Numbered from the stretch's first letter, positions 3-35,620 are shown. The stretch: 38,628 nucleotides of DNA from a bacterium (GCA_030426285.1 JAUHYX010000002.1:1-38628); one strand, 5' to 3'. Program-made: numbers and translations. The notes: generated from the letters alone by a model not told the origin.

Positions 3-704
3 TGTGTTGAGATTGATTGCACCGCGGACATCCTCGTTGAGTTTGCCGTCGTCGTCGTCATCGTTCCCTTCAACAAACACGTCATATCGCGTCCCTTCTG
101 CTCCGGGCGTGTATGGCACCATAACCGTTGATTCAAGAGCATGCTCCACAAATGCACCAGAACTGTTGGCAACACGCAAGTATCCTACAATACCATCGTT
201 GTTCATGTCGTTACCCGGATCTTCGTCCATGCGACCGTCCTTATCGTCATCCTGTGGTGTTAGTGCTCCCTTGGCCATGCGGATAGGCGTATCGCGAACA
301 GTCTGCAAACTGCTTGCCGACAAGTACGGAACGACATATACAGTTACGGAATCGAGGATGTTGTCATTGTTGAGCGTTCGTTTTACTAAAAAAGAACTCA
401 CGATTCCGGCCATAACATCTGGGCCAGTTATATCCATGGGTTCGATGCCCGCGACAAGCAACAAGGCCGGACGAGAGTGAATATTCTCCCCTTTGCCCAA
501 TGTTACCCACACAAGAGCATTCTCGTCGTAATCGTATCCAAAAGTTTCTAAGTGAACTACATCAGAGTTAGCATCTGCTATTTCCTGTAGCGCTTCACGA
601 ACTACACTCGGAGTTCCCCGTGTATTGGCAACTTCGGCCTGTGCGTATTGAAGCGAGAAAAGCATCGTAGCCGCAATAAGCAAGCGGCACCAAGAGTGGT
701 ACAT
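3..704 (-). CDS. Secreted M14-like (zinc-carboxypeptidase family) protein, N-terminal part only; the gene runs off the left edge of the window
   Basis: This gene is absent from the supplied ORF track because it has no stop codon inside the window. Reading the reverse complement from the ATG at 704-702 gives MYHSWCRLLIAATMLFSLQYAQA (signal peptide), then RPALLLVAGIEPMDITGPDVMAGIV, then TPQDDDKDGRMDEDPGNDMNNDGIVGYLRV, then GNDDDDDGKLNEDVRGAINLN. The frame stays open down to position 3. The acidic DDDxDG..DED..D.NxDG insert is what I remember from FCB-group proteins annotated as M14 family metallopeptidases. The + strand ORF 4..480 (Ser/Pro-rich) is the antisense shadow of this gene. Confidence 0.5.
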   Translation of the reverse strand, partial: MYHSWCRLLIAATMLFSLQYAQAEVANTRGTPSVVREALQEIADANSDVVHLETFGYDYDENALVWVTLGKGENIHSRPALLLVAGIEPMDITGPDVMAGIVSSFLVKRTLNNDNILDSVTVYVVPYLSASSLQTVRDTPIRMAKGALTPQDDDKDGRMDEDPGNDMNNDGIVGYLRVANSSGAFVEHALESTVMVPYTPGAEGTRYDVFVEGNDDDDDGKLNEDVRGAINLNT

Positions 705-7089: not shown

Positions 7090-9519
7090 TTAGAAATCTT
7101 GACCAAGTGAAATCAGCCAACGCGGCTTTCCGAAATGACCGAAAGCGTTTGGCCAAGCAACATCAATCTTCAATGGCAAACCAATTGGGAAAAGACGTAT
7201 TCCGACTCCTGTAGACCACACAAAATCTCGTGGAACCGGTTTAAAGTCTCGATCGGGCGTGGTTGCATCAATGTCAAACTCCTCATTCCAAGCAGCACCA
7301 GCATCAGCGAAAAGCAAGAAAAAGAGCGGCAATCGCAATTCAATATTGCCCGACACTACATTCTCCCCTCTCAGCTGATTAATATCCCATCCTCGCAAGG
7401 GGTGAACGGCTTTCATGAAGTACAACTCTGTGGCATTGTTGTAGGGTAGCTCATTGGCGAAGAATTCTCTATTCAACCAGCCCTGCTCACCTCCCAGGAA
7501 AAACACCGGTGGATTTGACCCAAATGTTGTTCCGCCAAACAAACGAGAAGCGACCACAAAACCACTGCCTAGGTGAAAGTACTTTCTTATGTCTGTGGAA
7601 AGCCTGCCAAAGCCAATATCTAGGTCACCATTGCCCAATCTCGGAGTGCCGTCAAACCGCACATACATTCGTGTTCCCTCAAATCCACCTGTCCACCCAA
7701 ACAACACGTCGTCATACACATATCCAATCGAAGGCGCAATATGGGTTGCAGATTCAGAAGGCAGATCGGGCGAATTGATGTCTTCCGACATCGTGTGTAC
7801 GAGAGACATGTTTAACTCAGCACGCGAGTATTTGCTAAATGGATAACGAGCCGAGGCTTCGCCACCTACATAACGATACTTCTTGCGCGGTCCAAATAGA
7901 GAGGTTCCTTCGGTGACATATGTTGCCGAGTGGAATGCAGCAAAACTATAATCTATTCTATTTGGCAGGTAATTGTAGGCCAAGTAAAAATTTGAGTTGT
8001 CAAGCGAGGTCAACATATATGCGCTGAAGTACATTTGGTGATCCCCTAGCATGTCTGAGAACAACATCTGAAACTGTCCCTGAACGCCCTGAACCCCATA
8101 GAACGTGTTCATCCCAACATTGCCGGTAATCAGATCTTGTGTAAAGTGGATCTTGTAATCGTACACTGGAAAGTCAGCGTCGGAAAATTCTGAATTCGCA
8201 ATTGATGTGCTGTTGTTGCTGTTTGTATTTGGAGTAACCGACAAACGCATGCCACCCAATTGAACATTGGAATTCGGCGTGGTAGCTGGAGTCGTATTTG
8301 CACTCGCATTACGCGTCTTCACAAATGTTGTTGGTACAGGAACCACATCGGTTAATGTCGTCAACGGTTGATCAATTCGATATAGATCAAAACCCATGTC
8401 GTCCTGTGAAGAAAACAACAGAATACTGCCGTCATTGCTGAGTTCAATTTGTTTTACCCCATTCAAGGCATTCGTTTTGCCGACAATACTTCCTGTGGAG
8501 AGAGTAAGCGAATAGATATTCGAAATCCCGCTCTCGTCTGAGCTAAACCATATTTCGTCTCCGCCAGGTACAATTGCGATAGAAGTTTCAACAGCTTCAG
8601 GACTATTGGTCAGTCGTTCCGCCTCAACCGCCCCTATTTCGAGAAAATAGATGTCGCTCACGTCAACATTGTAGTTCCACATATCAAAGTTTTCGGCGGT
8701 GGTTGTGGTAACCTGCAATTGATCCCCTCTATCCGACACAAAGTACAATCCGCTCGAAGCCTCATTCCATTTGGGTATTGTCTCAGAAAACACATCATTG
8801 GTCAGGCGCGTGACTCGTTCAGTTGCTACTTCAAACAAGAACAGGTCTGGTTGTTCATTCACGGTTGCCGAAAATGCTATATACCTACCATCTGGTGACC
8901 AAGACACAGAATTCATGAATCGAAATCCTAGGTCATACTTCTCTTCATCTCCTGACTCAACATCGACTATAAACAACGCATCGTTGCCGCCTGCTTTGGC
9001 GGAAACCGCGATTCTACGACTATCGGGAGCCCATGAAATTCCGGGTGTGAGGAAATTGAGCTCTTCAAAGTCATTCGCGCGTCCAGATGACAACACCTGC
9101 GTGATTTCTTCGGGATTGTCGAGATTCATAACAAACAATCCGAAAAACATTTCTCTGTCAGATATAAACACGGCCTTCTTTCCGTCTGGCGAAATCTCGG
9201 GAGACGTGTTGTAAAAAGCTCCATCTTCTTCGTGATTGGTCAGGCGCTGAGCGATATCTTTCAAGCGTGAGTATGTGTTGATATCTGGATAGTAGTACCG
9301 CTTGAGATCAGACTTAAACTCTTCGGTGAATTCATCTAATCCCATACCAAAAGTATTCTTAAATGCTGACTCCAAAGTTCCCGCTGCTAACACATTGTTA
9401 ATGAGTTCACCCACTTTGGATGGGCCGTATGTATCTGCTATGTACCAATACACAGTTTGACCACCGCGGTACGCTAAATACCCATTCATTTCTTCAGGCT
9501 CTGGAAGCTTTTCATTCAT
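7090..9519 (-). CDS. TolB-like PD40 beta-propeller plus Omp85/surface-antigen beta-barrel protein; it looks like the C-terminal 809 aa of a larger envelope protein
   Basis: Repeated SPDG/SWSPDG PD40 units (SPEISPDGKKAVFISD, ISWAPDSRRIAVSA, VSWSPDGRYIAFSA). The C-terminus is an Omp85-type barrel (GNIELRLPLF, STGVGIRL, PLKIDVAWP) ending in an aromatic residue (...SLGQDF). There is no signal peptide at its own N-terminus (MNEKLPEPEEMNGY...). Confidence 0.8.
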   Translation of the reverse strand: MNEKLPEPEEMNGYLAYRGGQTVYWYIADTYGPSKVGELINNVLAAGTLESAFKNTFGMGLDEFTEEFKSDLKRYYYPDINTYSRLKDIAQRLTNHEEDGAFYNTSPEISPDGKKAVFISDREMFFGLFVMNLDNPEEITQVLSSGRANDFEELNFLTPGISWAPDSRRIAVSAKAGGNDALFIVDVESGDEEKYDLGFRFMNSVSWSPDGRYIAFSATVNEQPDLFLFEVATERVTRLTNDVFSETIPKWNEASSGLYFVSDRGDQLQVTTTTAENFDMWNYNVDVSDIYFLEIGAVEAERLTNSPEAVETSIAIVPGGDEIWFSSDESGISNIYSLTLSTGSIVGKTNALNGVKQIELSNDGSILLFSSQDDMGFDLYRIDQPLTTLTDVVPVPTTFVKTRNASANTTPATTPNSNVQLGGMRLSVTPNTNSNNSTSIANSEFSDADFPVYDYKIHFTQDLITGNVGMNTFYGVQGVQGQFQMLFSDMLGDHQMYFSAYMLTSLDNSNFYLAYNYLPNRIDYSFAAFHSATYVTEGTSLFGPRKKYRYVGGEASARYPFSKYSRAELNMSLVHTMSEDINSPDLPSESATHIAPSIGYVYDDVLFGWTGGFEGTRMYVRFDGTPRLGNGDLDIGFGRLSTDIRKYFHLGSGFVVASRLFGGTTFGSNPPVFFLGGEQGWLNREFFANELPYNNATELYFMKAVHPLRGWDINQLRGENVVSGNIELRLPLFFLLFADAGAAWNEEFDIDATTPDRDFKPVPRDFVWSTGVGIRLFPIGLPLKIDVAWPNAFGHFGKPRWLISLGQDF

Positions 9520-11034: not shown

Positions 11035-12294
11035 TCAGTCCGTGTACTTCTTAAAGACCAGAGAAGCATTGTGTCCACCAAATCCAAACGTATTTGACAA
11101 CACTGCATTCAACTCGCGTTTAACGGGTTTGTTTGGAACATAGTCCAAGTCGCAATCAGGATCAGCTGTGGTGTAGTTGATCGTTGGTGGCACCATTCCT
11201 TCCTCAATTGCTTTTACGCAGGCTATTGCTTCAACAGCGCCCGCTGCACCGAGAAGGTGTCCGGTCATACTCTTGGTAGAGCTCACAACCAGATTTTTTG
11301 CGTGATCACCGAACACTGTTTTAATGGCCGCACTTTCGTTTCTATCATTAAATGGTGTTGATGTTCCATGCGCATTGATATAGTCAATATCTTCAGGCTG
11401 CAACCCGGCATCTTTGATAGCAATCTGCATTGAACGAACCGCACCTTCACCACCTTCTGCAGGTTGGGTAATATGGTATGCATCGTCTGTGAGGCCCATT
11501 CCCGACACTTCACAGTAGATTTTCGCGCCGCGCGCTTTAGCATGTTCTAGCGTTTCCATCACTAGAATACCGCCGCCTTCACCCATGACAAATCCATCAC
11601 GGTCTTTGTCAAACGGTCTGCTCGCACCGGCCGGATCGTCATTGCGTGTGCTCAAAGCTTTCATTGAGTTAAAACCACCAATACCCATCGGGCAAATCAC
11701 GGCTTCTGAACCACCTGCTAGGATTACATCCGCGTCACCCCGTTCGAGCAACATCATTGCATCTGCAATTGCCATGTTCGAGGTTGCGCAGGCAGCAACA
11801 GTTCCGTAGTTAGGTCCTTTGAAACCGTACTTAATAGCTATTTGTCCCGGCGAAATATCCGAGATAAGCATAGGAACAAAGAAAGGACTAATGCGGTCTG
11901 GCTTGCCATCGCGTTCAAAAAGGTTGGATTGCTGATTGTGGTATGTCCACATCCCGCCAATACCTGAACCGCACACAACACCAACGCGTTCTAAATCCAA
12001 TGTATCAAAATCAAATTTCGCGTCTTCTACAGCCATAATTGCAGAAGCCATCGCAAAAATTGTAAATGGATCCATGCGTCGTTGATCGCGAACCGTGAGA
12101 TACTGCGTTGCGTCAAAATCTTTTACTTCGCAGGCAAACTGAGTTTTGAATTCTGTGGCATCAAATTGCTTAATCGGAGCACCGCCCGATTTGCCTTCCA
12201 TCATGCCTTGCCAAAATTCTTGTACTGAATTACCGATTGGCGTAACAGCCCCCAATCCGGTAACGACAATTCTTTTCCTCTTGCTGTCAGACAT
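11035..12294 (-). CDS. fabF: 3-oxoacyl-ACP synthase II
   Basis: Contains RIVVTGLGAVTPIGN, the active-site ACATS, HGTSTP and GFGGHN. It sits directly downstream of acpP. Confidence 0.95.
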   Translation of the reverse strand: MSDSKRKRIVVTGLGAVTPIGNSVQEFWQGMMEGKSGGAPIKQFDATEFKTQFACEVKDFDATQYLTVRDQRRMDPFTIFAMASAIMAVEDAKFDFDTLDLERVGVVCGSGIGGMWTYHNQQSNLFERDGKPDRISPFFVPMLISDISPGQIAIKYGFKGPNYGTVAACATSNMAIADAMMLLERGDADVILAGGSEAVICPMGIGGFNSMKALSTRNDDPAGASRPFDKDRDGFVMGEGGGILVMETLEHAKARGAKIYCEVSGMGLTDDAYHITQPAEGGEGAVRSMQIAIKDAGLQPEDIDYINAHGTSTPFNDRNESAAIKTVFGDHAKNLVVSSTKSMTGHLLGAAGAVEAIACVKAIEEGMVPPTINYTTADPDCDLDYVPNKPVKRELNAVLSNTFGFGGHNASLVFKKYTD

Positions 12295-12412
12295 CTTCTG
12301 TCCTGTATAATTCTGTTTTGGGATACAATCAACGAGTCTTCCAACTCTCTGGCTGAAAGACTCATCGAACGTTACGTCAGTATTATCCGACGCTATTCAT
12401 TTGCCGATATTA

Positions 12413-12649
12413 TTAACCGGCGTTCTTCTCAAGATAAGAAACAGCGTCGCCGACAGTCTGAATCTTCTCAGCGTCACTGTCCTCAATAGAGGTGTCAAAC
12501 TCGCGTTCGAAGTCCATGATAAGTTCTACTGTATCGAGTGAGTCAGCACCGAGATCATTTGTGAATGATGCTTCTGGCTTTACTTGTGACTCTTCTACAC
12601 CGAGTTTGTCTACGATAATCTGCGTTACGCGTTCTGCAACGGTTGACAT
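12413..12649 (-). CDS. acpP: Acyl carrier protein
   Basis: Product is 78 aa with the [14 protein letters not shown] phosphopantetheine attachment motif. Confidence 0.97.
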
Positions 12650-12720
12650 TGTATGCCTCTACAGGTTAATACGTTAATAAGGGTTTATACTACGTTTAAG
12701 TTTAAGTCTATTCTCTATGT

Positions 12721-13467
12721 TTAGGCGGCCAATCCACCATCAACATTCAACACTTGTCCGGTTACATAACCGGAGGCATCAGAAAGGAAAAATGCAACCA
12801 CGGTAGCTACCTCTTCAGGTGTTGCCGAGCGTTGCATTGGAATATTCTTTTCGAATGCTTGAGTCTGCTCTTCTGTTAATTTGTCCGTCATGTCTGTTGC
12901 GACATAGCCCGGAGCAACGCAATTTACTAAAATATTACGAGAAGCAAGCTCCTTGGCCAATGACTTGGTCAGACCAATGAGACCTGCCTTAGATGCACTG
13001 TAGTTCACTTGTCCTGCATTTCCAGTCTGCCCTACAATAGAACCGATATTGACAATACGGCCATTGCGCTGCTTCATCATTGGGCGAGCTACAGCTCTAC
13101 TGGCGGTAAATGCCGATTTGAGATTTGTGTCGATAACCGCATCCCAATCTTCGTCCTTCATGCGCATCACCAATCCGTCTCTTGTGATACCGGCATTGTT
13201 TACAAGACCGTGAATTGCACCTTCGGCCTTGACCACTGTCTCGATGAGTGCTTGCACGTCGTCAGGACTCGCAACATCACACTTGTGGGATACAGCGCTA
13301 AGGTTTTTTGCCGCAAGATTGGCGACGATAGTGTCCGCATTTGCAGATGACGATCTATATGTGAAATGTACTTTAGCTCCTGCTGCGGCGCAGTGACGCA
13401 CAATCGCTTCACCAATACCACGCGAACCGCCAGTTACAACAATCACTTTGTCTTGAAGTGAACTCAT
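12721..13467 (-). CDS. fabG: 3-oxoacyl-ACP reductase
   Basis: Contains VTGGSRGIG, NNAG and YSASKAG (SDR catalytic YxxxK). It occupies the fabG position in the fab operon. Confidence 0.95.
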   Translation of the reverse strand: MSSLQDKVIVVTGGSRGIGEAIVRHCAAAGAKVHFTYRSSSANADTIVANLAAKNLSAVSHKCDVASPDDVQALIETVVKAEGAIHGLVNNAGITRDGLVMRMKDEDWDAVIDTNLKSAFTASRAVARPMMKQRNGRIVNIGSIVGQTGNAGQVNYSASKAGLIGLTKSLAKELASRNILVNCVAPGYVATDMTDKLTEEQTQAFEKNIPMQRSATPEEVATVVAFFLSDASGYVTGQVLNVDGGLAA

Positions 13468-13492
13468 AGTGTGTTTATCCCGATTTCGCTGT

Positions 13493-14413
13493 TTAACTCA
13501 ACAATTCAGACACTTGCTCAGCAGTGTCAAAACCTGAAATTTGTTTAGATCGATCAATGCGTTTTACAAGTCCTTGCAACACTTTACCAGGACCGAGCTC
13601 AACAAAACTCTCAACCCCACTATCAATCATTGCTTTGATGCTCTGCGTCCAGCGAACCGGTGAAACCAATTGCTGAACCAAGGCCTGCTTCAGTGCATCA
13701 GCGTCTGTAAGAGGTTGTGCTAAAGAGTTGACATACACAGGACAAGAAGCATCGTTGAATGTAATGTCGTTTATTGCAGCTTCTAACTCCATTTTTGCTG
13801 GTTGCATGAGCGGAGAGTGGAAGGCACCACTTACATTGAGCTCGACAACTTTTCTGGCTCCTGCATCTTTGAAAGCATGAGCATTCTTGCGCAGATATTC
13901 TGCGGTACCACTGACAACTACCTGTCCCGGTGAGTTGAAATTGGCTGCTACAACAACTCCTTCGGCAGAAGTTAGATTGCGGCAGAGTTGCTCTACTTCA
14001 TCGTCGTCAATGCCTAACACTGCGAACATAGTACCGGGTACTTGTTCCCCTGCTTTGAACATAAGCTGTCCGCGGAGAGAAACGAGTTTCAAAGCTTCCT
14101 CAAAGCCGATGACTCCAGCAGCGTACAATGCACTGTACTCACCGAGTGAGTGACCTGCAACTGCATCGCGGTTGAGTTTGTCTTTCAATAAATCGAATAG
14201 AGCTGCTTCGTGTAAAAACAAGGCCGGTTGTGTATATCGAGTTTCAGTCAAGGACTCTGTGGGTCCTTCCATGGCTATTGTGCCAATGCTGTACTCTAAA
14301 ATGTCGTTTGCTTGTTCGACCATACTTGCCACGCTCGGATAGGCCGCAGCTAAGTCTTTGATCATACCAACATATTGGGAACCTTGCCCGGAAAAAAGTA
14401 ATGCTTGTTTCAT
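13493..14413 (-). CDS. fabD: Malonyl CoA-ACP transacylase
   Basis: Contains FSGQGSQ, the GHSLGEYSA active site, and GAFHSPLM. Confidence 0.95.
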   Translation of the reverse strand: MKQALLFSGQGSQYVGMIKDLAAAYPSVASMVEQANDILEYSIGTIAMEGPTESLTETRYTQPALFLHEAALFDLLKDKLNRDAVAGHSLGEYSALYAAGVIGFEEALKLVSLRGQLMFKAGEQVPGTMFAVLGIDDDEVEQLCRNLTSAEGVVVAANFNSPGQVVVSGTAEYLRKNAHAFKDAGARKVVELNVSGAFHSPLMQPAKMELEAAINDITFNDASCPVYVNSLAQPLTDADALKQALVQQLVSPVRWTQSIKAMIDSGVESFVELGPGKVLQGLVKRIDRSKQISGFDTAEQVSELLS

Positions 14414-15405
14414 TTAATTGCCCATTTCAAGTAAATAGCACCCCATGTAAATCCAGCACCAAATGCTGCTAAGATGACATTGTCACCGTACTTCAATTGC
14501 CCATTCTTTTGCAATTCACTCAAGCAAATTGGAATGGTTCCTGAAGTTGTGTTACCAAACCGGTCGATATTGACAATGACTTTGTCGTCAGTAACACCCA
14601 TACGGCGAGCTGTAGCATCGATTATGCGCTTGTTGGCTTGGTGTGGAACCAACCACGCAACGTCGTCACCAGTGAGATTGTTGCGCTCCATAACTTCAGC
14701 GCTTACTTCGGCCATGCCTATAACTGCTTTCTTGAATACTGCTTGACCATCCTGAAACACGTAATGCTCTTTGTTGTCAACAGTTTCATGGGAGGCTGGT
14801 TTCCTGCTTCCGCCTGCTTTCATATGCAAATACGGCTCGCCCGAACCATCGATGTGTGTGATGGCATCTATAATTCCAACGTTTTCATCTTCTGAACGCT
14901 CTACAATTGCAACACCGGCACCGTCACCAAACAAAATGCTTGTAGTGCGGTCATCGTAGTTAAGGATTGAAGACATTTTGTCAGCGCCGCATACCATTAC
15001 CGTTTTTGCAACACCAGACTCAACAAATGCTCGTGCGCTGTTTAGGCCAAACAAAAACCCCGAACACGCAGCTGAGAGATCGTACCCCCATGCATTCTTC
15101 GCGCCAAGTTCACGTTGAACAATAGCCGCTGTGGGCGGAAACATCATGTCCGGAGTCACAGTGGTGACAATGATGATGTCAATATCTGCGGCTGTTTTAC
15201 CACAATTTTCAAGGGCTTCGCGAGCAGCAGGTAGGATCATATCTGACGTTGCTCCGTCAGTCATGATACGGCGTTCTTTAATTCCTGTTCGAGAGGTTAT
15301 CCACTCATCATTTGTGTCCATGCGCTCTGCAAACCACTGGTTGTCGTACACAGTGTCTGGTACATAATGAGCTATTGCAGTAAGTGCGGATCTATACTGT
15401 GGCAT
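14410..15405 (-). CDS. fabH: 3-oxoacyl-ACP synthase III
   Basis: Contains DLSAACSGF (active-site Cys), PHQAN, GNTTSGT and FGAGFTWG. Its stop overlaps the fabD start (ATGA). Confidence 0.95.
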   Translation of the reverse strand: MPQYRSALTAIAHYVPDTVYDNQWFAERMDTNDEWITSRTGIKERRIMTDGATSDMILPAAREALENCGKTAADIDIIIVTTVTPDMMFPPTAAIVQRELGAKNAWGYDLSAACSGFLFGLNSARAFVESGVAKTVMVCGADKMSSILNYDDRTTSILFGDGAGVAIVERSEDENVGIIDAITHIDGSGEPYLHMKAGGSRKPASHETVDNKEHYVFQDGQAVFKKAVIGMAEVSAEVMERNNLTGDDVAWLVPHQANKRIIDATARRMGVTDDKVIVNIDRFGNTTSGTIPICLSELQKNGQLKYGDNVILAAFGAGFTWGAIYLKWAIK

Positions 15406-15417
15406 GTTTGCGGTCCT

Positions 15418-16452
15418 TTAGTGTTCGGTACTTGCGGAAGCATTTTGCAATGCCTCTTCGATAGCTGCGTTTAAGCGCTTTTCATACATGGTGTACGCTT
15501 GAGATATCATATTGCGTACTGCAAGCCCGGAAGAGCTGCCGTGACCTATTATCACGCAACCACGAACGCCCAACAAGGGCACACCGCCGTGTTCTTCGTA
15601 GTTAAAATCGCTGAGCATGTTCTTGAGAACAGGCGCAACAACCGCAGCTTTTAACGTGTTAAACAAATTTTTCTTTGCGTATGCTTTGAGGCGATTCTTA
15701 AACAGATTCAAGAAACTCTCGCCAAATTTCAAGACGATGTTGCCAACGAAACCATCACAAACCACTACGTCTACCGACCGGTTCATGATGTCGCGTCCTT
15801 CTACATTGCCTACATAATGCAGGCCAGCGCTCTGAGCTTTCAATTCGAGAAGTTCGTCAGCTTCCTGTACAACCTTCGTACCCTTGCCTTTTTCTTCTCC
15901 AATATTCAAGAGGCCAACACGCGGCCGCGGAACTCCGAGAACGTGTCGAACGTATTCTGAACCCATCACGGCAAATTCAAACAAGTGTTGGGGTTTGTTG
16001 TCTGCATTGGCTCCAACATCCACCACAACGGTGTTCTTTCCGAATTCATGTGTGGGAAACATCGCTCCAATTGTTGGCCTTCCTGCTCCGCGAATTCTAC
16101 CGAGCATTAGTGTACCAACAGCCATCATTGCACCAGTATTGCCAGCAGATACAAAGGCATCTACATCACCATTCTTGTGAAGCAACATCCCTTGATATAA
16201 ACTGGAATCCCGCCGATGTTTGTACACTTCGGCGGGATCGTCTTCCGTCGCAATCACGTCTGTTGCACCGTGAATTGAAATTTTGCTTGTGTCACCACCT
16301 TGCTTTGCGAGTTCATCTCGCAGAGCCTGTTCTGGCCCCACCAACACAATTTCGAGATTCATGTGCGGAAAGTCGCGCAGTGCTTGAATTGCACCCGCTA
16401 CTTCACTTTCAGGAGCGTGATCGCTTCCCATCGCGTCTACGGCTATGCGCAT
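15418..16452 (-). CDS. plsX: Phosphate acyltransferase PlsX
   Basis: Contains MRIAVDAMGSDHAP, VSAGNTGA and GHGSS. It lies between rpmF and fabH, as in the canonical operon. Confidence 0.95.
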   Translation of the reverse strand: MRIAVDAMGSDHAPESEVAGAIQALRDFPHMNLEIVLVGPEQALRDELAKQGGDTSKISIHGATDVIATEDDPAEVYKHRRDSSLYQGMLLHKNGDVDAFVSAGNTGAMMAVGTLMLGRIRGAGRPTIGAMFPTHEFGKNTVVVDVGANADNKPQHLFEFAVMGSEYVRHVLGVPRPRVGLLNIGEEKGKGTKVVQEADELLELKAQSAGLHYVGNVEGRDIMNRSVDVVVCDGFVGNIVLKFGESFLNLFKNRLKAYAKKNLFNTLKAAVVAPVLKNMLSDFNYEEHGGVPLLGVRGCVIIGHGSSSGLAVRNMISQAYTMYEKRLNAAIEEALQNASASTEH

Positions 16453-20360: not shown

Positions 20361-21125
20361 TTAACGCAATTGGAAAACAACTGGTACAGAGAACCACGCA
20401 CCAACAGGTTCACCGTTCTGGATCCCTGGAGAATACGTTGCCTGCTTTACCGCTTTTAATGCCGCCTGTTTGAGCTGTTCATTATCCGAATGCTCAACAA
20501 CGGCTTCTTGCAATTTTCCGTCTTTCCCAACATATACACGAATGTACACTGTTCCTTCAATACCAGCGCGCTTGGCAATGTCCGGGTATTCCACAAGCTT
20601 CTGCAGCGCTGAAATATCAGTACTTGGCTGTACTTCAACTGGAATAAACTCGTACATGTCTGGAATTTCTTCTTCAACTTCTACTTCGATGTCAAGGTCT
20701 TCTACTTCAACATCAATTTCAGTTTCTTCAACCGAACCTTGCGCATCGGATGTTTCCATGTCCTCAACGCTTGCAAAAATTTCCATTTCTGGCGTCACAA
20801 GGGCATCAGGTACTGCAACTGGTTTACCTGCTCGCGCAACCTGCTTCAGAATCTGGTCTGTTGAAGGTGGCGGTGGCGGTGTTGCCTCACTTGGCGGTGG
20901 CGGTGGCAAATTGCGCAACGACACTCGTTTGGCTTTGAGTGGTGGACGCAAGTCCGCTGAAGTTTTCGGGCCAAAGGCTGAATACGCGTAATAACTTCCA
21001 AAGAAGAGCGCCATTCCTGCAAATGTGAACACTGTCGCACGCACGGTGTTCTTGCGAATCACTTCTTTCAGTTCTTTTGCGCCATAGCTGCCGCGTTTTA
21101 GGGGCTGTGTATTACTTTTTGTCAT
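20361..21125 (-). CDS. tonB: Energy transducer TonB
   Basis: Has an N-terminal TM anchor, a Pro-rich spacer (LPPPPPSEATPPPPPS), an acidic EV/DI repeat stretch, and a C-terminal TonB domain (YPDIAKRAGIEGTVYIRVYVGKDGK...PV). A GAGGAG SD site is present. Confidence 0.85.
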   Translation of the reverse strand: MTKSNTQPLKRGSYGAKELKEVIRKNTVRATVFTFAGMALFFGSYYAYSAFGPKTSADLRPPLKAKRVSLRNLPPPPPSEATPPPPPSTDQILKQVARAGKPVAVPDALVTPEMEIFASVEDMETSDAQGSVEETEIDVEVEDLDIEVEVEEEIPDMYEFIPVEVQPSTDISALQKLVEYPDIAKRAGIEGTVYIRVYVGKDGKLQEAVVEHSDNEQLKQAALKAVKQATYSPGIQNGEPVGAWFSVPVVFQLR

Positions 21126-29383: not shown

Positions 29384-30427
29384 TTAAAAGTACTCCATAA
29401 GCAGCGGAAGGGCCTGTACACCACCTAGACATGCGTGGAAACACAATGCTGCTAAAACAACAGCCACAACATCGTCCGTCATTGTTGAAGCCGGTGAAGA
29501 CTTGTCGTCCGCAAGGTACACAGGCCATGGCTTTACGATGTCAAAAAGGCGAAAAAGACCGAATGCCAACCCGTACCACAACAATGTGTGCGGTATGAAC
29601 GGCGATGCAAACAGTAGCATCATTGCAGCAAATTCATCCAGCACAAAACTGGAATTATCGTGGCCAAAACTGCGTTCGTAAGATGCAGCTATAGCGTAGC
29701 CGACAATAAGTGCTGCAAGTCCGATTAATGCATTTATGAGCCAATCGTCAACAAACCATGCTACGCCCATCGCTGCTAGCGATGCAAATGTTCCAGGAGC
29801 TGGAGGCAAAAAGCCGACGCCACCCAATGAACCAGCAGAAAGCGTTGCCGGGGAAACTTTGGCCGAATCCGCGTGCGTGCTGTAGTGCTTGAGGAGTAAT
29901 CCACGATTTACGACAGTATAATGTACGCCGGATAAGAATGTATATGCTGCAACCCCGATGGTTCCATACCACACGGCGTCAATGAGGAACAATGATTTTC
30001 CCTGCCAACTAAGTACGGCGAGTGCAACAAAAATGAAGGTCATTTGTGTTGCAGTCTTCAGTTTAGCTACGCGGCTCGTTTCAAGTGGTTCATGTACCAA
30101 ATCAGCCCAATTTCTCAACCATGTCACATATATATCGCGAAACACGATAAGCAGTACCGCCCACCATGGCGCATAACCATCCCATGCGAGAGCGGCAAAA
30201 GACAATGTCGTCAAGACCTTGTCTGCCAATGGGTCAAACCATCTACCTGTATCCGACTCAGCATTTAAACGGCGTGCCAGCCAACCATCAAGCCAATCCG
30301 TCCACCCCGCCACAAAAAATGCTACCAAGGCCGCTTCGAATTCCTCAATAACAAAGAGGTACAAGAATAGCGGCGCAAGCACAATGCGCAAAGTTGAAAC
30401 AAGATTTGGCCAGATATTGTTGTCCAC
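29384..30427 (-). CDS. Fusion protein: CDP-alcohol phosphatidyltransferase (PgsA-like) joined to phosphatidylglycerophosphatase A (PgpA)
   Basis: The N-terminal half carries the full DwlDGwlAR-x8-G-x3-D-x3-D motif (TDWLDGWLARRLNAESDTGRWFDPLADK). The C-terminal half is colinear with PgpA: GGVGFLPPAPGTFASLAA, HDNSSFVLDEFAAMM, FRLFDIVKPWPV and TMTDDVVAVV. The GTG start directly abuts the tpiA stop (TAAGTG). Confidence 0.85.
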   Translation of the reverse strand: MDNNIWPNLVSTLRIVLAPLFLYLFVIEEFEAALVAFFVAGWTDWLDGWLARRLNAESDTGRWFDPLADKVLTTLSFAALAWDGYAPWWAVLLIVFRDIYVTWLRNWADLVHEPLETSRVAKLKTATQMTFIFVALAVLSWQGKSLFLIDAVWYGTIGVAAYTFLSGVHYTVVNRGLLLKHYSTHADSAKVSPATLSAGSLGGVGFLPPAPGTFASLAAMGVAWFVDDWLINALIGLAALIVGYAIAASYERSFGHDNSSFVLDEFAAMMLLFASPFIPHTLLWYGLAFGLFRLFDIVKPWPVYLADDKSSPASTMTDDVVAVVLAALCFHACLGGVQALPLLMEYF

Positions 30428-31192
30428 TTACTTCTGTAATTCCTTCGCAGTTCCGACAATTGATGCAAAGGCATCTGGTTTAAGGCTTGCACCACCTATG
30501 AGTCCACCATTGACATGTTCTACAGCCAATATCTTGGCAGCATTGTCTGCGTTCAAGCTTCCACCATACAGAATCTTTATCGTGTTGGCGGTCGCGCCGA
30601 ACATACCCACAAGCTCTGTGCGAACCACGGCGTGTGACTCTCTGATCTGTTCAGGTGTTGCGGCTTGCTGTCCAATTGCCCAGACTGGTTCATAGGCAAT
30701 GATGATATTGCCACAATCGGTCACACCGTGCAACCCCTGCTTTATTTGTTGCTGCAATGTCTCCTTCATCTCACCATTTGCACGTTGCTCTGCAGTTTCT
30801 CCTATACAGTACACAGCCGTCAATTTTTGGCGCAGCGCAGATAGTATTTTCGCATTGCACAATGCATTTGTCTCGCCTTGATACTGACGTCGTTCAGAAT
30901 GACCAACGAGTACATGTGAGCAGCCCGATTCCTGAATAGCTACTGCCGACACCTGTCCAGTAAATGCGCCGCTATCTTCGTGAGAACAGTCCTGAGCGCC
31001 ACACTGAATTCCCGACGTACCAATTCCAGAAACAACCGCTGGGATTGAGAGAAACGGCGGACATACGAGCACCTCAACGTCTTGTGTTGCTTGAATGCCT
31101 GACTCAATGAGGGTACTGATGAGGTTTGCAGCTTCTGAAGGAGTCGTATTCATCTTCCAGTTGCCGGCGATTACGTAAGGTGTCTTTTTCAT
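30428..31192 (-). CDS. tpiA: Triosephosphate isomerase
   Basis: Contains IAGNWKMN, VGHSERR, AYEPVWAIG and YGGS. Confidence 0.95.
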   Translation of the reverse strand: MKKTPYVIAGNWKMNTTPSEAANLISTLIESGIQATQDVEVLVCPPFLSIPAVVSGIGTSGIQCGAQDCSHEDSGAFTGQVSAVAIQESGCSHVLVGHSERRQYQGETNALCNAKILSALRQKLTAVYCIGETAEQRANGEMKETLQQQIKQGLHGVTDCGNIIIAYEPVWAIGQQAATPEQIRESHAVVRTELVGMFGATANTIKILYGGSLNADNAAKILAVEHVNGGLIGGASLKPDAFASIVGTAKELQK

Positions 31193-31216
31193 TGCGTATA
31201 CACGTTCTCTAGTTGT

Positions 31217-31741
31217 TCATTGTTGAATCGTATGGGTACCGGTAACTTTGTATACTGAATACTCAGTCAAGCGTTCGGTAGCTTGAAAGCCAACCCCTAC
31301 TATTCGTTGATGGGGTGTGCGTATTTCAACTGGTGCATCAGACGTAAACAATTTGTCTACGTTGGACCAGTGAATCTTGTCTGTAGAAATCTTTCGGTCT
31401 GTTCCTGTCACAACAACATCGCCAAATGCCGTCATGTCTTTTGTCTTGTCGTTGATAACTGCACTATCGGCAACCAACACGGTGGTGTCTCCTTCATTCG
31501 GAATCACAAGCCTAAATCCACCTGAGAGCAATGTACGGGCTTGCGGTTCGAAAATCTTAGCTTTCGTTGCCGTAAGCTGTGCGCGCAACGAACCCGAATC
31601 GCGAAATTCAGTATGAACTTCCCAGACCTCGTGTGTTGGCCATTCTTCTGCATCCTTCTCTATAACTGGTGAGTGCACTTGCGGTTCATTGTTGCTGCCA
31701 CACCCAATAAGAGCACAACCAAGTAATATGTATGCAAACAT
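31217..31741 (-). CDS. lptC: LPS export system protein LptC (lipoprotein form)
   Basis: Has a lipobox (ALIGC) and an OstA/LptC-like beta-jellyroll pattern (LTATKAKIFE...VVVTGTDRKISTDKIHWSNVDKLFTSDAPVEIRTP...GVGF). It lies directly downstream of kdsA. I preferred the ATG at 31741, though the ORF-track TTG at 31750 would overlap the kdsA stop as TTGA. Confidence 0.7.
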   Translation of the reverse strand: MFAYILLGCALIGCGSNNEPQVHSPVIEKDAEEWPTHEVWEVHTEFRDSGSLRAQLTATKAKIFEPQARTLLSGGFRLVIPNEGDTTVLVADSAVINDKTKDMTAFGDVVVTGTDRKISTDKIHWSNVDKLFTSDAPVEIRTPHQRIVGVGFQATERLTEYSVYKVTGTHTIQQ

Positions 31742-31746
31742 CAACT

Positions 31747-32304
31747 TCAAATAGTATCTCCACCCTGCACCGCATCTCGCACTCGCAGGAGGTCTTCTAC
31801 AAATCCGGTAAACTCGTGCAACGGAATTTGTGTTGCTTTGTCGCTCTTGGCATGTTTTGGATCTGGATGTGTTTCGGCAAAAACACCATCACAACCTGCT
31901 GCTACAGCTGCTCTTGCGAGCGGCAAACAGTATTGTCTATCGCCTCCAGATTCAGTCCCGATACTCGGACGCTGCAACGAATGCGTTGCGTCGTATACCA
32001 CCAGACAGCCAGTTTGAGACATAATTGGCAGTGAGCGCATGTCGACAACCAAATTGTGGTATCCAAAGAATGTACCTCGTTCTGTCAGCCACACGTCATT
32101 GTCACCTTGTGATCTAATTTTTTCCACAGCCTTTTGCATGTCTTCCGGTGCCATGAACTGGCCTTTTTTCACATTAATTGTCTTGCCTGTCGCGGCCGCA
32201 GCCAGCAGCAAATCTGTTTGCCGAGCCAAAAAGGCAGGAATCTGTAGGACGTCCACATATTGAGAGGCCATGTCTGCGTCGGCAACCTCGTGGATGTCAG
32301 ACAT
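31747..32304 (-). CDS. kdsA: 3-deoxy-8-phosphooctulonate synthase (KdsA), C-terminal fragment of 185 aa
   Basis: Contains [43 protein letters not shown] and [12 protein letters not shown], all canonical KdsA. It starts at an ATG created inside the 54-nt insert, and it is in the same reading frame as the N-terminal fragment. Confidence 0.85.
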
Positions 32305-32354
32305 GGCCTCTCAATATGAGGCCATGTCTGCGTCGGCAACCTCGTGGATGTCAG
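32257..32354. repeat. Duplication-inversion inside kdsA: a 37-nt direct repeat (32264-32300 = 32318-32354) separated by a 17-nt segment (32301-32317) that is the exact reverse complement of 32257-32273
   Basis: Read directly from the sequence. atattgagaggccatgt / ctgcgtcggcaacctcgtggatgtcag / acatggcctctcaatat / gaggccatgtctgcgtcggcaacctcgtggatgtcag. All matches are perfect. Confidence 0.95.
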
Positions 32355-32610
32355 TTAGCGTCGGCAGACCAAACTCTGCACCAACATCTCGAATAATTGT
32401 TAGAGCTTTTTCGGTGCCTATAGTGGTAAAGCTGTCTATCGAACTTCGGTTTGCCTTCTTAAAGCTACCTTTGAGATACACTGTTAGCTTGTGTTGCTGT
32501 TGTATGGTTGCTACCACTTCTGCCACTTGTTGCATTTGATCTTTTGATTCAATCAAACACGGTCCGGCAATAAGGAACAGCGCAGACTCAGGTATGTGTG
32601 TGTTTTTCAT
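32311..32610 (-). CDS. kdsA: 3-deoxy-8-phosphooctulonate synthase (KdsA), N-terminal fragment of 99 aa ending at an insert-borne TGA
   Basis: The sequence MKNTHIPESALFLIAGPCLIESKD...LKGSFKKANRSSIDSF...[16 protein letters not shown]-stop is colinear with the KdsA N-terminus. I chose the ATG at 32610. The Cys-rich 60-aa extension in the ORF track (up to 32790) has no KdsA counterpart and runs into the ftsK start. Confidence 0.85.
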   Translation of the reverse strand: MKNTHIPESALFLIAGPCLIESKDQMQQVAEVVATIQQQHKLTVYLKGSFKKANRSSIDSFTTIGTEKALTIIRDVGAEFGLPTLTDIHEVADADMASY

Positions 32611-32776
32611 GCTGCAAAAATACGAAAATGGACCTGTTTTCACGTGTGCTGCACACACTCTTTTTTGAGCTTCGTTTGCAACACTACAAGCATGCAATGT
32701 ATATTGAGGGTGCAGCATAGTGTCCACACAAGGACATCTCCAACAACAACCGAAGATTGCTTCAAAGGTGAAATTA

Positions 32777-35620
32777 ATGTCAGATTCCACCTCCCGCGAC
32801 GTGCGTATTCGCCGGGAAAAAATAGGCCAAAAACGTCGACGACCTCGTACACAACAGGGTGATGTCAGCTCTAAGTCTCCACGTGAACAACGCGAACAAG
32901 CACCACAATCTGATGCACAATTCTCGTCTGATTCAACGTCGACATCCTCAACGCATCATCATTCAACAAAAATAAAGGTTGCAGCATCCCTCTTTGGTGT
33001 GTTTTGTTTTCTTGTGTTACTCGCATTTGTGAGCTACACGCCATTTGACGAAGCTTCTGCCTCTGTGTCATTTTCTGACTTTTTAGGGTTGCTAACTGCA
33101 GACGAGTCGGTTCGTGCACGTGCCGATGTTACTCACAACTGGCTCGGTTTGCTCGGTGCTGTGATATCGCATTTCTTTTACAACAATACCGTTGGTTATA
33201 TATCACTTTGCTTCCCCATTGTTGGACTACTTTGGTCGTACCGTTTGTTCACAAGCGGTGTGTCGCGACGGTTGATTCGCAATACCGGTTATATGGTTGT
33301 AGGGTCGATTTTGTTAGCGGCTCTCATCGGGACAACACAACGCATAGATTGGCTGTTTGAGCTTGCGCCTGAATGGTCTGGTGCGATCGGACAATTTCTC
33401 AGCGAAGTTATCTCGGGACTGATAGGTACAATAGGCTCTTTTCTTTTGTTTTCTGCAGGCCTTGTTCTCATTGTGATGTACGGATTTGAGTACGACAAGC
33501 AACAGGTCATTGCTCGTGCTAGAATTGTACAAGCTCATATGCTGCAACTCTGGCGCAAGGTGATTGCTATGGTGCAAGACATCACACGCGAGACAAAACA
33601 GTCTATAAATGATAGTGAAGATGTGTCTGACGAGGATGCTTCGCAGGACGAAGAACGTCAATTTGCAGAACACCAAGCTGCGCCAGAACCGCCGATTTCG
33701 AGAAGACCGGTTGACGAGGATGAACCTGCGACGATGCTGAGGCAACATTCAACTCCTGTTGAAACGCAAGCTCAACCATCTGAAACTCAAGCTCCAGTAG
33801 CTCAGCCGGCACAACAACCCTCTTCTTCCATTGCTGCGCGGATTGTTCGTAGACAAGAAGAACAAGAAAAGACAGCCGCACCTCCGACAATTGAAAACAG
33901 TATTGCGCAGACACAAGGATTTGATGAACAAGAAGATACATCTTCGGAATCAGATTCACATTCATATACGCAAGCACCAACACCAAAGCCCAAGGTGAAT
34001 GAGCAGTCAACTTCTGACACTCAGTCAACTCCACAAGTAGAAGAACATGAAGAACCGGCACTGACTCTCACTGTGCAAGAACGCGACGAGGAAGAGAAGG
34101 TGCAGCATCGCCCAGACGCAGCCAATGCGGAGCTCGATGAAGAGATCATGTACACTCCGCCAACGCTGCAGTTGCTCAAACCAGATGAGCAGCTGAATGT
34201 TCTTTCGGATGAAGAGCTTGAACGCAATGCCACTATTCTGCAGGAAAAGTTGCGCACGTTTAAGATCGAAATCACGGATGTAACGGTAACACCTGGCCCT
34301 GTAGTTACGCAGTATGAATTCATTCCTGCAGCTGGAATCAAAGTAAGTCAAATCGAAAATTTAGCAGATGACATTGCCTTGGCTTTGAAAGCTCGTGGCA
34401 TAAGAATTATTGCTCCAGTGCCAGGCAAAGGAACTGTTGCAGTTGAGATACCGAATCACAAGCCGCAATTAGTGCGCTTTTCCGGAATACTGCAATCGCC
34501 GAAGTTTCAAGACAACAAACTCCATTTGCCAATAGCCCTGGGAAAGACTATCAATGGTGAAGTGTTTGTTGACGACTTAGCCAAGATGCCTCACTTGCTC
34601 ATTGCAGGTTCAACTGGTAGCGGTAAGTCTGTTGGTATCAATGCATTAGTGTGCTCGCTGTTGTACAAGATGCATCCGCGCAATATGAAAATGTTGATCA
34701 TTGACCCTAAAAAGGTTGAGATGACGCCATACCGTGCAATCTCTCACCACTTTTTAGCGGTATGCCCAGATATCGATGAAAACATCGTCACAGAGCCAGC
34801 AAATGCAGTCATTGCTCTCAAATCTGTTGAAGCAGAAATGGACCGTCGCTACACAATACTTGCCCATGTTGGTCAGCGCAATGTTGTAGACTACAACAGC
34901 AAGGTACGATCCGGCGCGTACAGAGATGACGACAAATTTGTGCATCAAGAATTACCATTTATTGTTGTTGTTATTGATGAATTGGCAGACTTGATGATGA
35001 CAGCATCAAAGGACGTTGAACCGCCAATTACCCGCCTAGCGCAATTGGCTCGCGCAATTGGCATTCACTTGGTTGTCGCAACACAGCGTCCATCCGTGAA
35101 TGTGATTACAGGACTAATTAAAGCCAACTTCCCAGCGCGGATTGCATACCAGGTTGCTTCAAAGATCGACTCTCGCACTATTTTGGATTCCAATGGCGCT
35201 GAACACTTGCTCGGCAACGGAGATATGCTGTATTTGCCTGGTGGCAGTCCAAAACCAACTCGCATTCAAAACAGTTTTCTCAGTACCGATGAAGTTGAAG
35301 CTATTTGTGACCATATCGGCAATCAAATTGGCTACAGCCAACCGTTTACATTGCCTTCGATAGAGGAAAAATCAGGTGGCGGAGCCGGCGCTATGGCGGC
35401 GGCTGAACGCGATGAGTACTTCGAAGAAGCCGCGCGCCTAGTGGTAGAGCATCAGCAGGGTTCGGTTTCTCTTGTTCAACGCCGACTAAAGGTGGGATAC
35501 TCGCGAGCTGCTCGCATTATCGACCAGCTGGAAGATGCCGGCGTTGTGGGGCCATTTGATGGTTCCAAAGCTCGTGTCGTGTACCCAGAAAGCGTAATGG
35601 AGCTCGAAGGCCTCATTTGA
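32777..35620 (+). CDS. ftsK: DNA translocase FtsK/SpoIIIE
   Basis: Has N-terminal TM helices, a long acidic/Gln-Pro-rich linker, a motor domain with Walker A GSTGSGKS, DELADLMM and ATQRPSV, and a C-terminal gamma winged helix (SVSLVQRRLKVGYSRAARIIDQLE). The ATG at 32777 has an AAGGTGA SD site, whereas the ORF track starts at a GTG at 32720. Confidence 0.93.
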   Translation: MSDSTSRDVRIRREKIGQKRRRPRTQQGDVSSKSPREQREQAPQSDAQFSSDSTSTSSTHHHSTKIKVAASLFGVFCFLVLLAFVSYTPFDEASASVSFSDFLGLLTADESVRARADVTHNWLGLLGAVISHFFYNNTVGYISLCFPIVGLLWSYRLFTSGVSRRLIRNTGYMVVGSILLAALIGTTQRIDWLFELAPEWSGAIGQFLSEVISGLIGTIGSFLLFSAGLVLIVMYGFEYDKQQVIARARIVQAHMLQLWRKVIAMVQDITRETKQSINDSEDVSDEDASQDEERQFAEHQAAPEPPISRRPVDEDEPATMLRQHSTPVETQAQPSETQAPVAQPAQQPSSSIAARIVRRQEEQEKTAAPPTIENSIAQTQGFDEQEDTSSESDSHSYTQAPTPKPKVNEQSTSDTQSTPQVEEHEEPALTLTVQERDEEEKVQHRPDAANAELDEEIMYTPPTLQLLKPDEQLNVLSDEELERNATILQEKLRTFKIEITDVTVTPGPVVTQYEFIPAAGIKVSQIENLADDIALALKARGIRIIAPVPGKGTVAVEIPNHKPQLVRFSGILQSPKFQDNKLHLPIALGKTINGEVFVDDLAKMPHLLIAGSTGSGKSVGINALVCSLLYKMHPRNMKMLIIDPKKVEMTPYRAISHHFLAVCPDIDENIVTEPANAVIALKSVEAEMDRRYTILAHVGQRNVVDYNSKVRSGAYRDDDKFVHQELPFIVVVIDELADLMMTASKDVEPPITRLAQLARAIGIHLVVATQRPSVNVITGLIKANFPARIAYQVASKIDSRTILDSNGAEHLLGNGDMLYLPGGSPKPTRIQNSFLSTDEVEAICDHIGNQIGYSQPFTLPSIEEKSGGGAGAMAAAERDEYFEEAARLVVEHQQGSVSLVQRRLKVGYSRAARIIDQLEDAGVVGPFDGSKARVVYPESVMELEGLI

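Follow-up and report, generated by a model that had tools for sequence, protein, structure and literature searches.

The kdsA reading frame in the bacterial contig analysed here (a complete NCBI contig, 38,628 nt, hereafter the window) is broken by an in-frame insertion of 54 nt. This break is a real feature of the deposited contig and represents a private copying accident, not an evolved split enzyme or a switch. The rearrangement is established as the product of two template switches and is of an already known kind, namely a short-range template-switch insertion or an amplification chimera. The working gene of the organism is the uninterrupted allele, which is found elsewhere. On comparison of the available sequences, the insert allele may be taken as established to be derived, without evolutionary age and private to this record.

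Architecture of the rearranged region

The segment 32257-32354 reads exactly X Y Z Y' X' Y Z, in which X is ATATTGA (32257-32263, 7 nt), Y is GAGGCCATGT (32264-32273, 10 nt) and Z covers the 27 nt of 32274-32300. On one contiguous molecule X is present twice (once inverted), Y three times (the middle copy inverted) and Z twice. The elements are as follows.

32256-32276, unstranded: sequence from which the inverted segment was copied, made up of X, Y and 3 nt at the start of Z; its CTG (32274-32276) is a putative landing site for the CAG at 32298-32300
32264-32300, unstranded: direct repeat copy 1 (Y+Z, 37 nt), the original copy in the plus-strand fold-back model
32301-32317, unstranded: inverted segment Y'X' (17 nt unique; 21 nt when taken as 32298-32318), which supplies the TGA and the ATG
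32318-32354, unstranded: second copy of the direct repeat (Y+Z, 37 nt), the same as copy 1 in every base

The 37-mer at 32264-32300 recurs at 32318-32354 with a start-to-start spacing of 54 nt, as claimed in an earlier note on this DNA. The two copies show no divergence, and their identity stops dead at both ends without a single additional matching base. Equally correct was the description of the intervening 17 nt (32301-32317; ACATGGCCTCTCAATAT) as an inverted copy. They are the exact reverse complement of 32257-32273, and the full exact inverted match grows to 21 nt (32298-32318 against the reverse complement of 32256-32276) when the junction microhomology is counted. The extra inverted-match bases, CAG (3 nt) at the first junction and G (1 nt) at the second, are common to the flanking direct copies. 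Junction 1 (Z/Y') reads GGATGTCAG/ACATGGCC, or in its longer form GTGGATGTCAG/ACATGGCCTC, and offers a 3-nt microhomology between CAG and the CTG at 32274-32276, 21 nt away; junction 2 (X'/Y) reads CTCAATAT/GAGGCC, or CTCTCAATAT/GAGGCCATGT, and offers 1 nt.

Within a range of at most 100 nt, the longest exact direct and inverted repeats at the site measure 37 and 21 nt as deposited and drop to 14 and 11 nt when the 54 nt are left out; in 12 dinucleotide-preserving shuffles, both reach 10-12 nt. A 37-nt direct repeat accompanied by a 21-nt inverted repeat is far beyond chance. No second structure of the same sort is present in the 38.6-kb window. A mobile element or a member of another repeat family was discarded as the source of the insert, because the 54 nt consist wholly of local sequence and have no other copy in the window.

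The interrupted gene and its neighbours

The insert falls into the first gene of a same-strand string, whose members and fragments are listed here.

31747-32610, minus strand: kdsA as deposited, 864 nt with the 54-nt insert and the final stop codon counted (810 nt and 269 aa without the insert)
32314-32610, minus strand: N-terminal fragment, 99 aa, β1-α3 of the TIM barrel, ending in ...DADMASY (PF00793 profile positions 17-103; homologue secondary structure)
31747-32304, minus strand: C-terminal fragment ORF, 185 aa, α3 again and then β4 to α8 (PF00793 profile positions 92-258)
31217-31750, minus strand: lptC, directly downstream, overlapping or abutting the kdsA stop codon (TIGR04409, 69.1 bits against a cut-off of 38)
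30428-31192, minus strand: tpiA, in the same-strand gene string
29384-30427, minus strand: pgsA::pgpA fusion, in the same-strand gene string

Deletion of 32264-32317 produces an 810-nt ORF for a 269-aa protein, which bears out the claim that removal of the 54 nt restores KdsA. NCBIfam NF003543 gives 357.7 bits for this repaired product and TIGR01362 gives 354.9 bits, above their equivalog cut-offs of 242 and 314, and profile positions 15-272 of 273 are covered. Aligned to the KDO8P synthase of Aquifex aeolicus (1fwn; E = 3.7e-82), the product runs through the repaired junction without a gap. Its metal ligands C18, H192, E228 and D239 correspond to Aquifex C11, H185, E222 and D233, and these columns are invariant among 26-30 homologues. 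The repaired gene, identified as kdsA already in the earlier note, is accordingly annotated here as 3-deoxy-8-phosphooctulonate synthase of the predicted metal-dependent class. The repaired product is alike to the Aquifex enzyme in length, equivalog scores and metal ligands, whereas the gene as deposited differs from it in being cut by the insert.

The KdsA frame of this record is interrupted by the TGA at 32311-32313 and falls into ORFs of 99 and 185 aa. The new TGA and the new ATG (32302-32304) lie in one minus-strand frame with 6 nt between them, as had been stated from the sequence. Both codons derive from the inverted copy: the TGA is the reverse complement of a TCA that spans the Ser-Gln codons, and the ATG stems from inversion of the Met codon in DADMAS, which reappears as a start codon owing to the palindrome CATG. 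An overlap of 12 duplicated residues (D87-S98), equivalent to 12 PF00793 profile positions, is shared by the two ORFs; the claim that both carry this segment is confirmed by their profile ranges.

The order kdsA-lptC-tpiA-pgsA::pgpA, with kdsA in first position, was likewise proposed correctly; it is supported by profile matches and kept in the nearest relative (72 %). Upstream of kdsA lies ftsK in divergent orientation. By its position, lptC would be exposed to any polar effect of the kdsA break. The ~31 other genes checked in the window are intact and give full-length matches to housekeeping families, among them the fab cluster, plsX, carB, pyrB, ruvB, rnc, prmC and exbB-exbD-exbD-tonB, so that kdsA is the sole broken gene among ~32.

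The uninterrupted allele

The ancestral state of the locus can be read from other datasets. The 90 % protein cluster of the C-terminal fragment comprises three members. Two of them, P0002 (185 aa) and P0122 (138 aa), are the two fragments of this record, the latter consisting of the 99-aa N-terminal fragment and a 39-codon upstream extension. The third, P0121 (308 aa), comes from Logan assemblies and consists of the same 39-codon extension followed by the exact 269-aa repaired KdsA. Within this cluster the insert allele occurs only in the one record studied here.

Two contigs, each from a different sequencing run, encode P0121: L162 (SRR24442557, 2458 bp) and L163 (ERR3420974, 2440 bp). Each is contained letter for letter in the window minus 32264-32317 but not in the unaltered window. 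A further contig of the first run (L164, 3638 bp, carrying fabH-fabD-fabG-acpP) is 100 % identical to the window. Over the ~8.5 kb compared with these three contigs there are zero substitutions, and the window differs from them by the 54-nt block alone. SRR24442557 was generated from sample Bf03S1 of a metagenome of Korean shrimp biofloc aquaculture, sequenced on Illumina and assembled with metaSPAdes; from that project 444 MAGs were deposited, 86 of them Bacteroidota, and whole-genome amplification is not described.

The Logan contigs were built at k = 31, below the 37-nt repeat length, and L162 and L163 pass straight through the repeat site. Had the insert allele been well supported in those reads, a loop at the repeat would have interrupted the contigs; the unbroken contigs thus presumably argue against such support.

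The homologues point in the same direction. In the nearest relative (L161, 72 %) kdsA is intact in the same gene order, and none of the 29 nearest homologues (53-100 % identity), which are of Kapaibacteria/Chlorobi/Ignavibacteria type, has residues in the 18 columns that the insert adds to the alignment. The check proposed in the earlier note, whether kdsA of the closest relatives carries the insert, therefore turned out negative for the 72 % relative and the 28 other homologues aligned. A search of genome and metagenome contigs with the repaired KdsA gave 160 loci among the matches listed, all at 47-60 % identity and from Kapaibacteria/Chlorobi-type and Flavobacteriaceae MAGs; the junction k-mers are absent from all 164 loci compared. 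The existence of the uninterrupted allele, the 100 % identical flanks and the homologues lacking the insert together resolve the direction of change, with the insert as the derived state. Since the flanks are identical and the 37-mers undiverged, the event has no evolutionary age.

Mechanism of the rearrangement

The whole change is accounted for by a single path in the four-point template-switch model (Löytynoja & Goldman; Walker et al. 2021, PMC7954356), with point 1 at 32300, point 2 at 32273, point 3 at 32257 and point 4 at 32264. The event type is 3-4-2-1; had the minus strand been nascent, it would be the mirror type, 4-3-1-2. Because point 2 comes before point 1, a fold-back within one strand is possible. 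The event is one of the "4 before 1" class, whose members are visible as one large insertion (PMC7954356).

On this basis we propose the following scenario: One DNA molecule, or a small clone of molecules, would have been hit by a double switch during the copying of kdsA. Synthesis in the plus direction might have reached ...GGATGTCAG (32300), whereupon the 3' end CAG could pair with the CTG at 32274-32276, either in the nascent strand, by fold-back, or in the sister strand. Subsequently, 17 nt (Y'X') would be copied in reverse up to 32257, before a return to the original template at 32264, 37 nt behind the departure point, via the 1-nt microhomology. The outcome, X Y Z Y' X' Y Z, would be longer by 54 nt and still in frame, and the added sequence happens to carry a TGA and, 6 nt on, an ATG. 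We infer that the two switches took place in this order.

The earlier note had interpreted the pattern as the footprint of a template switch at a quasi-palindrome. The two-switch geometry is exact and this part of the interpretation stands; the quasi-palindrome as trigger does not. The reference allele contains no local inverted repeat longer than 11 nt, and its DNA fold is that of shuffled sequence (z = -0.08), compared with z = -5.6 after the event. Its sole pre-existing stem has one arm in the following position.

32248-32256, unstranded: left arm (GACGTCCAC) of the stem in the reference allele, pairing with GTGGATGTC at 32290-32298

This stem of 9 bp (32248-56/32290-98) is weak and imperfect, with 8 Watson-Crick pairs and one G-T pair, and it is not the pair that was perfected by the event. 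The inverted copy ends exactly at its edge. A quasi-palindrome hotspot was rejected on these grounds, and plain microhomology-primed switching is supported in its place.

In-vitro product or living allele

The two-switch geometry describes what was copied and leaves two settings in which the copying may have taken place. With slightly better than even confidence, we favour the reading that the insert allele is an in-vitro polymerase product, from amplification or library PCR, or a rare variant taken into the consensus, and not the majority allele. A caveat to this effect was already attached to the pattern when it was first noticed, and it is supported. Polymerases are documented to form such proximal inverted joins in vitro, as the commonest chimera in MDA (PMC1855051) and in the foldback or dual-strand artefacts of library preparation (PMC10908179, PMC7531576). 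The preference has two grounds: a stop in kdsA should not predominate in a living population of an LPS producer, and the only two independent observations of this strain show the intact gene. Loss of kdsA is normally not tolerated in LPS-producing bacteria, which, with kdsA being the only broken gene among the ~32, argues against a majority allele in a living population. The way into the consensus is conceivable. At k below 37 the de Bruijn graph of a duplication-like variant contains a loop, which assemblers tend to traverse and not to skip, and the variant could presumably enter the assembly in this manner. On balance we infer an artefactual or minority status of the insert allele.

Several points weigh against this preference. 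The clean 38.6-kb contig suggests decent coverage, in which a single chimeric molecule should not win. Sonication and enzymatic libraries do yield reads with nearby opposite-strand sequence, yet these known artefacts stay below 5 % allele frequency and typically possess one junction (PMC10908179, PMC7531576). If the contig stems from the biofloc project, which is plausible, no MDA was used. Finally, switches of the "4 before 1" class do take place in living cells (PMC7954356), and an origin in vivo fits the structure equally well.

We therefore also consider, as a less probable yet serious possibility, a genuine in-vivo mutation that is dominant in the sampled population or clone. It would have arisen by a template switch at replication, through an intra-strand fold-back or across the fork, and would represent a fresh null or strongly hypomorphic kdsA, possibly polar on lptC, that is as yet unpurged or tolerated. 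The four-point type (3-4-2-1 or 4-3-1-2) with its possible intra-strand switch and its place in the "4 before 1" class is compatible with such an origin. Moreover, junctions with only 3 nt and 1 nt of homology need real molecules instead of a graph artefact, and the otherwise clean contig (~31 intact genes), identical to independent contigs, indicates a sound assembly. However, a stop in kdsA would be expected to kill an LPS-producing bacterium or to burden it heavily, and a consensus assembly reflects the majority allele of many cells. Furthermore, both runs containing this strain assembled only the uninterrupted allele, and the insert allele occurs in no other record.

A pure assembly artefact without any supporting molecule, caused by mis-traversal of the graph or by a polishing error, appears very unlikely. 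It would explain why the insert is seen in this one assembly only, while the reference allele was assembled twice elsewhere. Its difficulty lies in the junctions, whose sequences are new relative to the reference allele and have only 3 nt and 1 nt in common with it. The reference lacks a local inverted repeat above 11 nt, and a k-mer overlap of at least 20 nt from which a false edge might arise is presumably missing. A de Bruijn graph with k of at least 21 could not invent such junctions from microhomologies of 3 nt and 1 nt, and both thus presumably stem from real molecules. On this reasoning, a pure graph misassembly was rejected.

Split, recoded or switching enzyme

The features at the break invite functional explanations, in which the insert allele is real and an active KdsA is still made; we regard such a case as highly improbable. 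Three routes can be envisaged. Translation might terminate at the TGA and re-initiate 6 nt further on, giving complementing fragments with (β-α)1-3 and α3+(β-α)4-8; the TGA might be read through, resulting in an 18-residue insertion; or the ribosome might hop from one copy of the ATG-GCC codons to the other across the 20-bp hairpin, bypassing 54 nt. In the AlphaFold model of a colinear 72 % homologue (pLDDT 90.7), β3 comprises residues 84-87, α3 91-98 and β4 103-106. According to this model, the duplicated segment D87-S98 is predicted to correspond to the end of β3 and helix α3, and the cut to lie in the α3-β4 surface loop, a site that is expected to be benign for a TIM barrel. The position of the break in this loop, the presence of an α3 copy in each fragment and the in-frame arrangement of stop and ATG, 6 nt apart, would suit an active split KdsA. 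Fragment complementation is known experimentally for other TIM barrels. The bypass route finds a superficial parallel in gene 60 of phage T4, where programmed bypassing operates with take-off and landing sites: in the deposited kdsA the codons are duplicated, the stop follows two codons past ...ATG GCC and the hairpin is strong.

The translational context shows no trace of adaptation. At the site the mRNA is predicted to form a perfect stem of ~20 bp (-52.3 kcal/mol, z = -5.4), whose 5' arm holds both the TGA and the ATG. The only Shine-Dalgarno-like sequence, GAGG, sits 2 nt upstream of the new ATG and is misplaced relative to the -14..-7 region, in which 7/21 genes of the window have an SD-like 4-mer. 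Independent initiation at the new ATG is therefore judged unlikely. An active split KdsA is further disfavoured by the 100 % identity of the flanks to those of the uninterrupted allele, which leaves no time for adaptation, and by the homologues, none of which (29 compared) is split or contains the insert. The bypass-like features (matched codons, stop and hairpin) are present here and not conserved in the 29 homologues. All suggestive features are automatic by-products of the duplication-inversion. The proposal of a naturally split enzyme is not supported, given the intact gene of the same strain in two runs, 29/29 intact homologues and the burial of the ATG in the ~20-bp stem. That the +54 allele is real, dominant in the source population and viable via a functional KdsA, be it by re-initiation, read-through or bypass, is hardly to be expected.

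The least probable of the readings is a reversible, phase-variation-like ON/OFF switch of Kdo/LPS synthesis, driven by recurrent template-switch insertion and precise removal between the 37-nt repeats. Precise reversion is mechanistically possible with 37-nt direct repeats 54 nt apart, and both alleles occur in public data for apparently one strain. Slippage between direct repeats is, however, generic to any tandem duplication, and reversion is thus not evidence for a switch. The forward step has no basis in the sequence (z = -0.08; 3-nt and 1-nt homology), a useful recurrence rate is not expected, and the two alleles are seen in separate records. Switching off an essential step is not known to serve as a strategy of phase variation. 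As the repeat or insert is found in no relative and the insert allele in this record only, the switch suggested earlier is not upheld. Even taken together, the switch and the split enzyme remain very improbable. With these two set aside, there is left either a newly arisen null allele or, as the preferred reading, a product made in vitro or a minority variant.

Implications for the record

The finding is primarily one of data quality, as a public record shows two CDSs in place of one essential LPS gene, whose intact allele is located elsewhere. Owing to the broken kdsA entry, pangenome and metabolic reconstructions would wrongly call Kdo synthesis lost or split. The practical outcome is an annotation caveat on this record. 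The locus also illustrates a double template switch cleanly, as a DUP-TRP/INV-DUP at nucleotide scale whose ancestral state is exactly known. If the +54 allele were real and dominant, it would constitute a natural experiment on the tolerance of KdsA to splitting, to which no finding points. If an active enzyme were in addition made from it, one spontaneous switch would have created a split or recoded essential enzyme, precisely revertible via the 37-nt repeats.

Comparison with known systems

The rearrangement shares its basic strategy with several described processes. Closest are the short-range template switches analysed with the four-point model (PMC7954356), which also copy a short reverse complement of adjacent sequence via two switches (1->2 and 3->4) and leave the descendant with a perfect inverted repeat and a far more stable hairpin. 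The 2->3 length of 17-21 nt found here lies inside the reported range (median 12, maximum 128; PMC7954356). These reported events are fixed differences between ape genomes, whereas the kdsA event is private to one bacterial assembly and breaks an essential gene. Ripley-type quasi-palindrome mutagenesis likewise generates a perfect inverted repeat by intra- or inter-strand template switching at replication. It converts an imperfect into a perfect palindrome with few substitutions, in contrast to the kdsA event, which involves no such conversion and adds 54 nt.

The copy-number architecture with two junctions in cis is that of DUP-TRP/INV-DUP rearrangements (Carvalho/Lupski, PMC11293582), which are ascribed to two template switches with a microhomology of 1-9 bp at the second junction. 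The difference is one of scale, with segments of 7, 10 and 27 nt here and of kilobases to megabases in the human genome. Furthermore, the first switch in DUP-TRP/INV-DUP is mediated by pre-existing inverted low-copy repeats, whereas only 3 nt (CAG/CTG) are available in kdsA.

The chimeras formed during MDA (Lasken & Stockwell 2007, PMC1855051) arise at one junction per 10-22 kb; 85 % of them are inverted, with priming at 2-21 nt of complementarity. The kdsA event resembles these and library chimeras in its proximal inverted join primed at a complementarity of at least 2 nt (here 3 nt, 21 nt away), and the published MDA example, which uses CGCAG/CTGCG (PMC1855051), is similar to the CAG/CTG pair at junction 1. 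The typical MDA or library chimera, however, has one junction and an intervening deletion, whereas the kdsA event has two junctions 17 nt apart, returns to the original strand and results in a net duplication.

Recurrence of the clone in separate datasets

Not one substitution separates window positions 11795-15432 and 30924-33435 from contigs of SRR24442557 (a biofloc sample from Korea) and ERR3420974, which are different sequencing runs, so that one and the same clone appears to be present in no fewer than two or three datasets. PRJNA967453, the biofloc project, may also be the origin of the deposited contig. The two Logan contigs carrying the uninterrupted kdsA, L162 (SRR24442557) and L163 (ERR3420974), end within tpiA and ftsK despite their origin from separate runs, and their ends map to window positions 30924 and 30941 (17 nt apart) and to 33435 and 33434 (1 nt apart), respectively. 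This near-coincidence suggests graph branch points common to both samples, arising either from co-occurring strain variants or from k-mers shared with another genome. No repeat was seen in the window at these end positions.

Start of kdsA

32611-32727, minus strand, upstream extension of kdsA as called (39 codons, MDTMLHPQ...)
32720-35620, plus strand, longest ftsK ORF (start codon GTG at 32720)

In both the NCBI N-fragment P0122 and the intact Logan protein P0121 the kdsA start is called 39 codons upstream of MKNTH, the start common to all homologues. The called extension, reaching 32727, runs into the longest ftsK ORF. The start calls for kdsA and ftsK are almost certainly not both right, and the ATG at 32610 is probably where kdsA truly begins.

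Other genes of the window

29384-30427, minus strand, pgsA::pgpA fusion (347 aa, one ORF)
4-480, plus strand, ORF of 158 aa
9516-10085, minus strand, ORF of 189 aa
21208-23130 and 20361-21125, minus strand, exbB-exbD-exbD-tonB cluster, followed by a PBP-like protein and by a TPR protein of 579 aa

The fusion joins two successive steps of phosphatidylglycerol synthesis within one polypeptide, with PgsA at residues 6-175 (TIGR00560) and PgpA at residues 203-331 (NF008288). An equivalent 347-aa fusion (CDP-OH_P_transf + PgpA) occupies the matching position in the 72 % relative. Neither the 158-aa nor the 189-aa ORF matched a Pfam family at E <= 1e-5; the latter adjoins the gene for a PD40/DPPIV_N beta-propeller protein (7090-9519), with which it may be co-transcribed. 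The exbB-exbD-exbD-tonB region, with its two ExbD paralogues in tandem, looks like an ordinary FCB-group arrangement.
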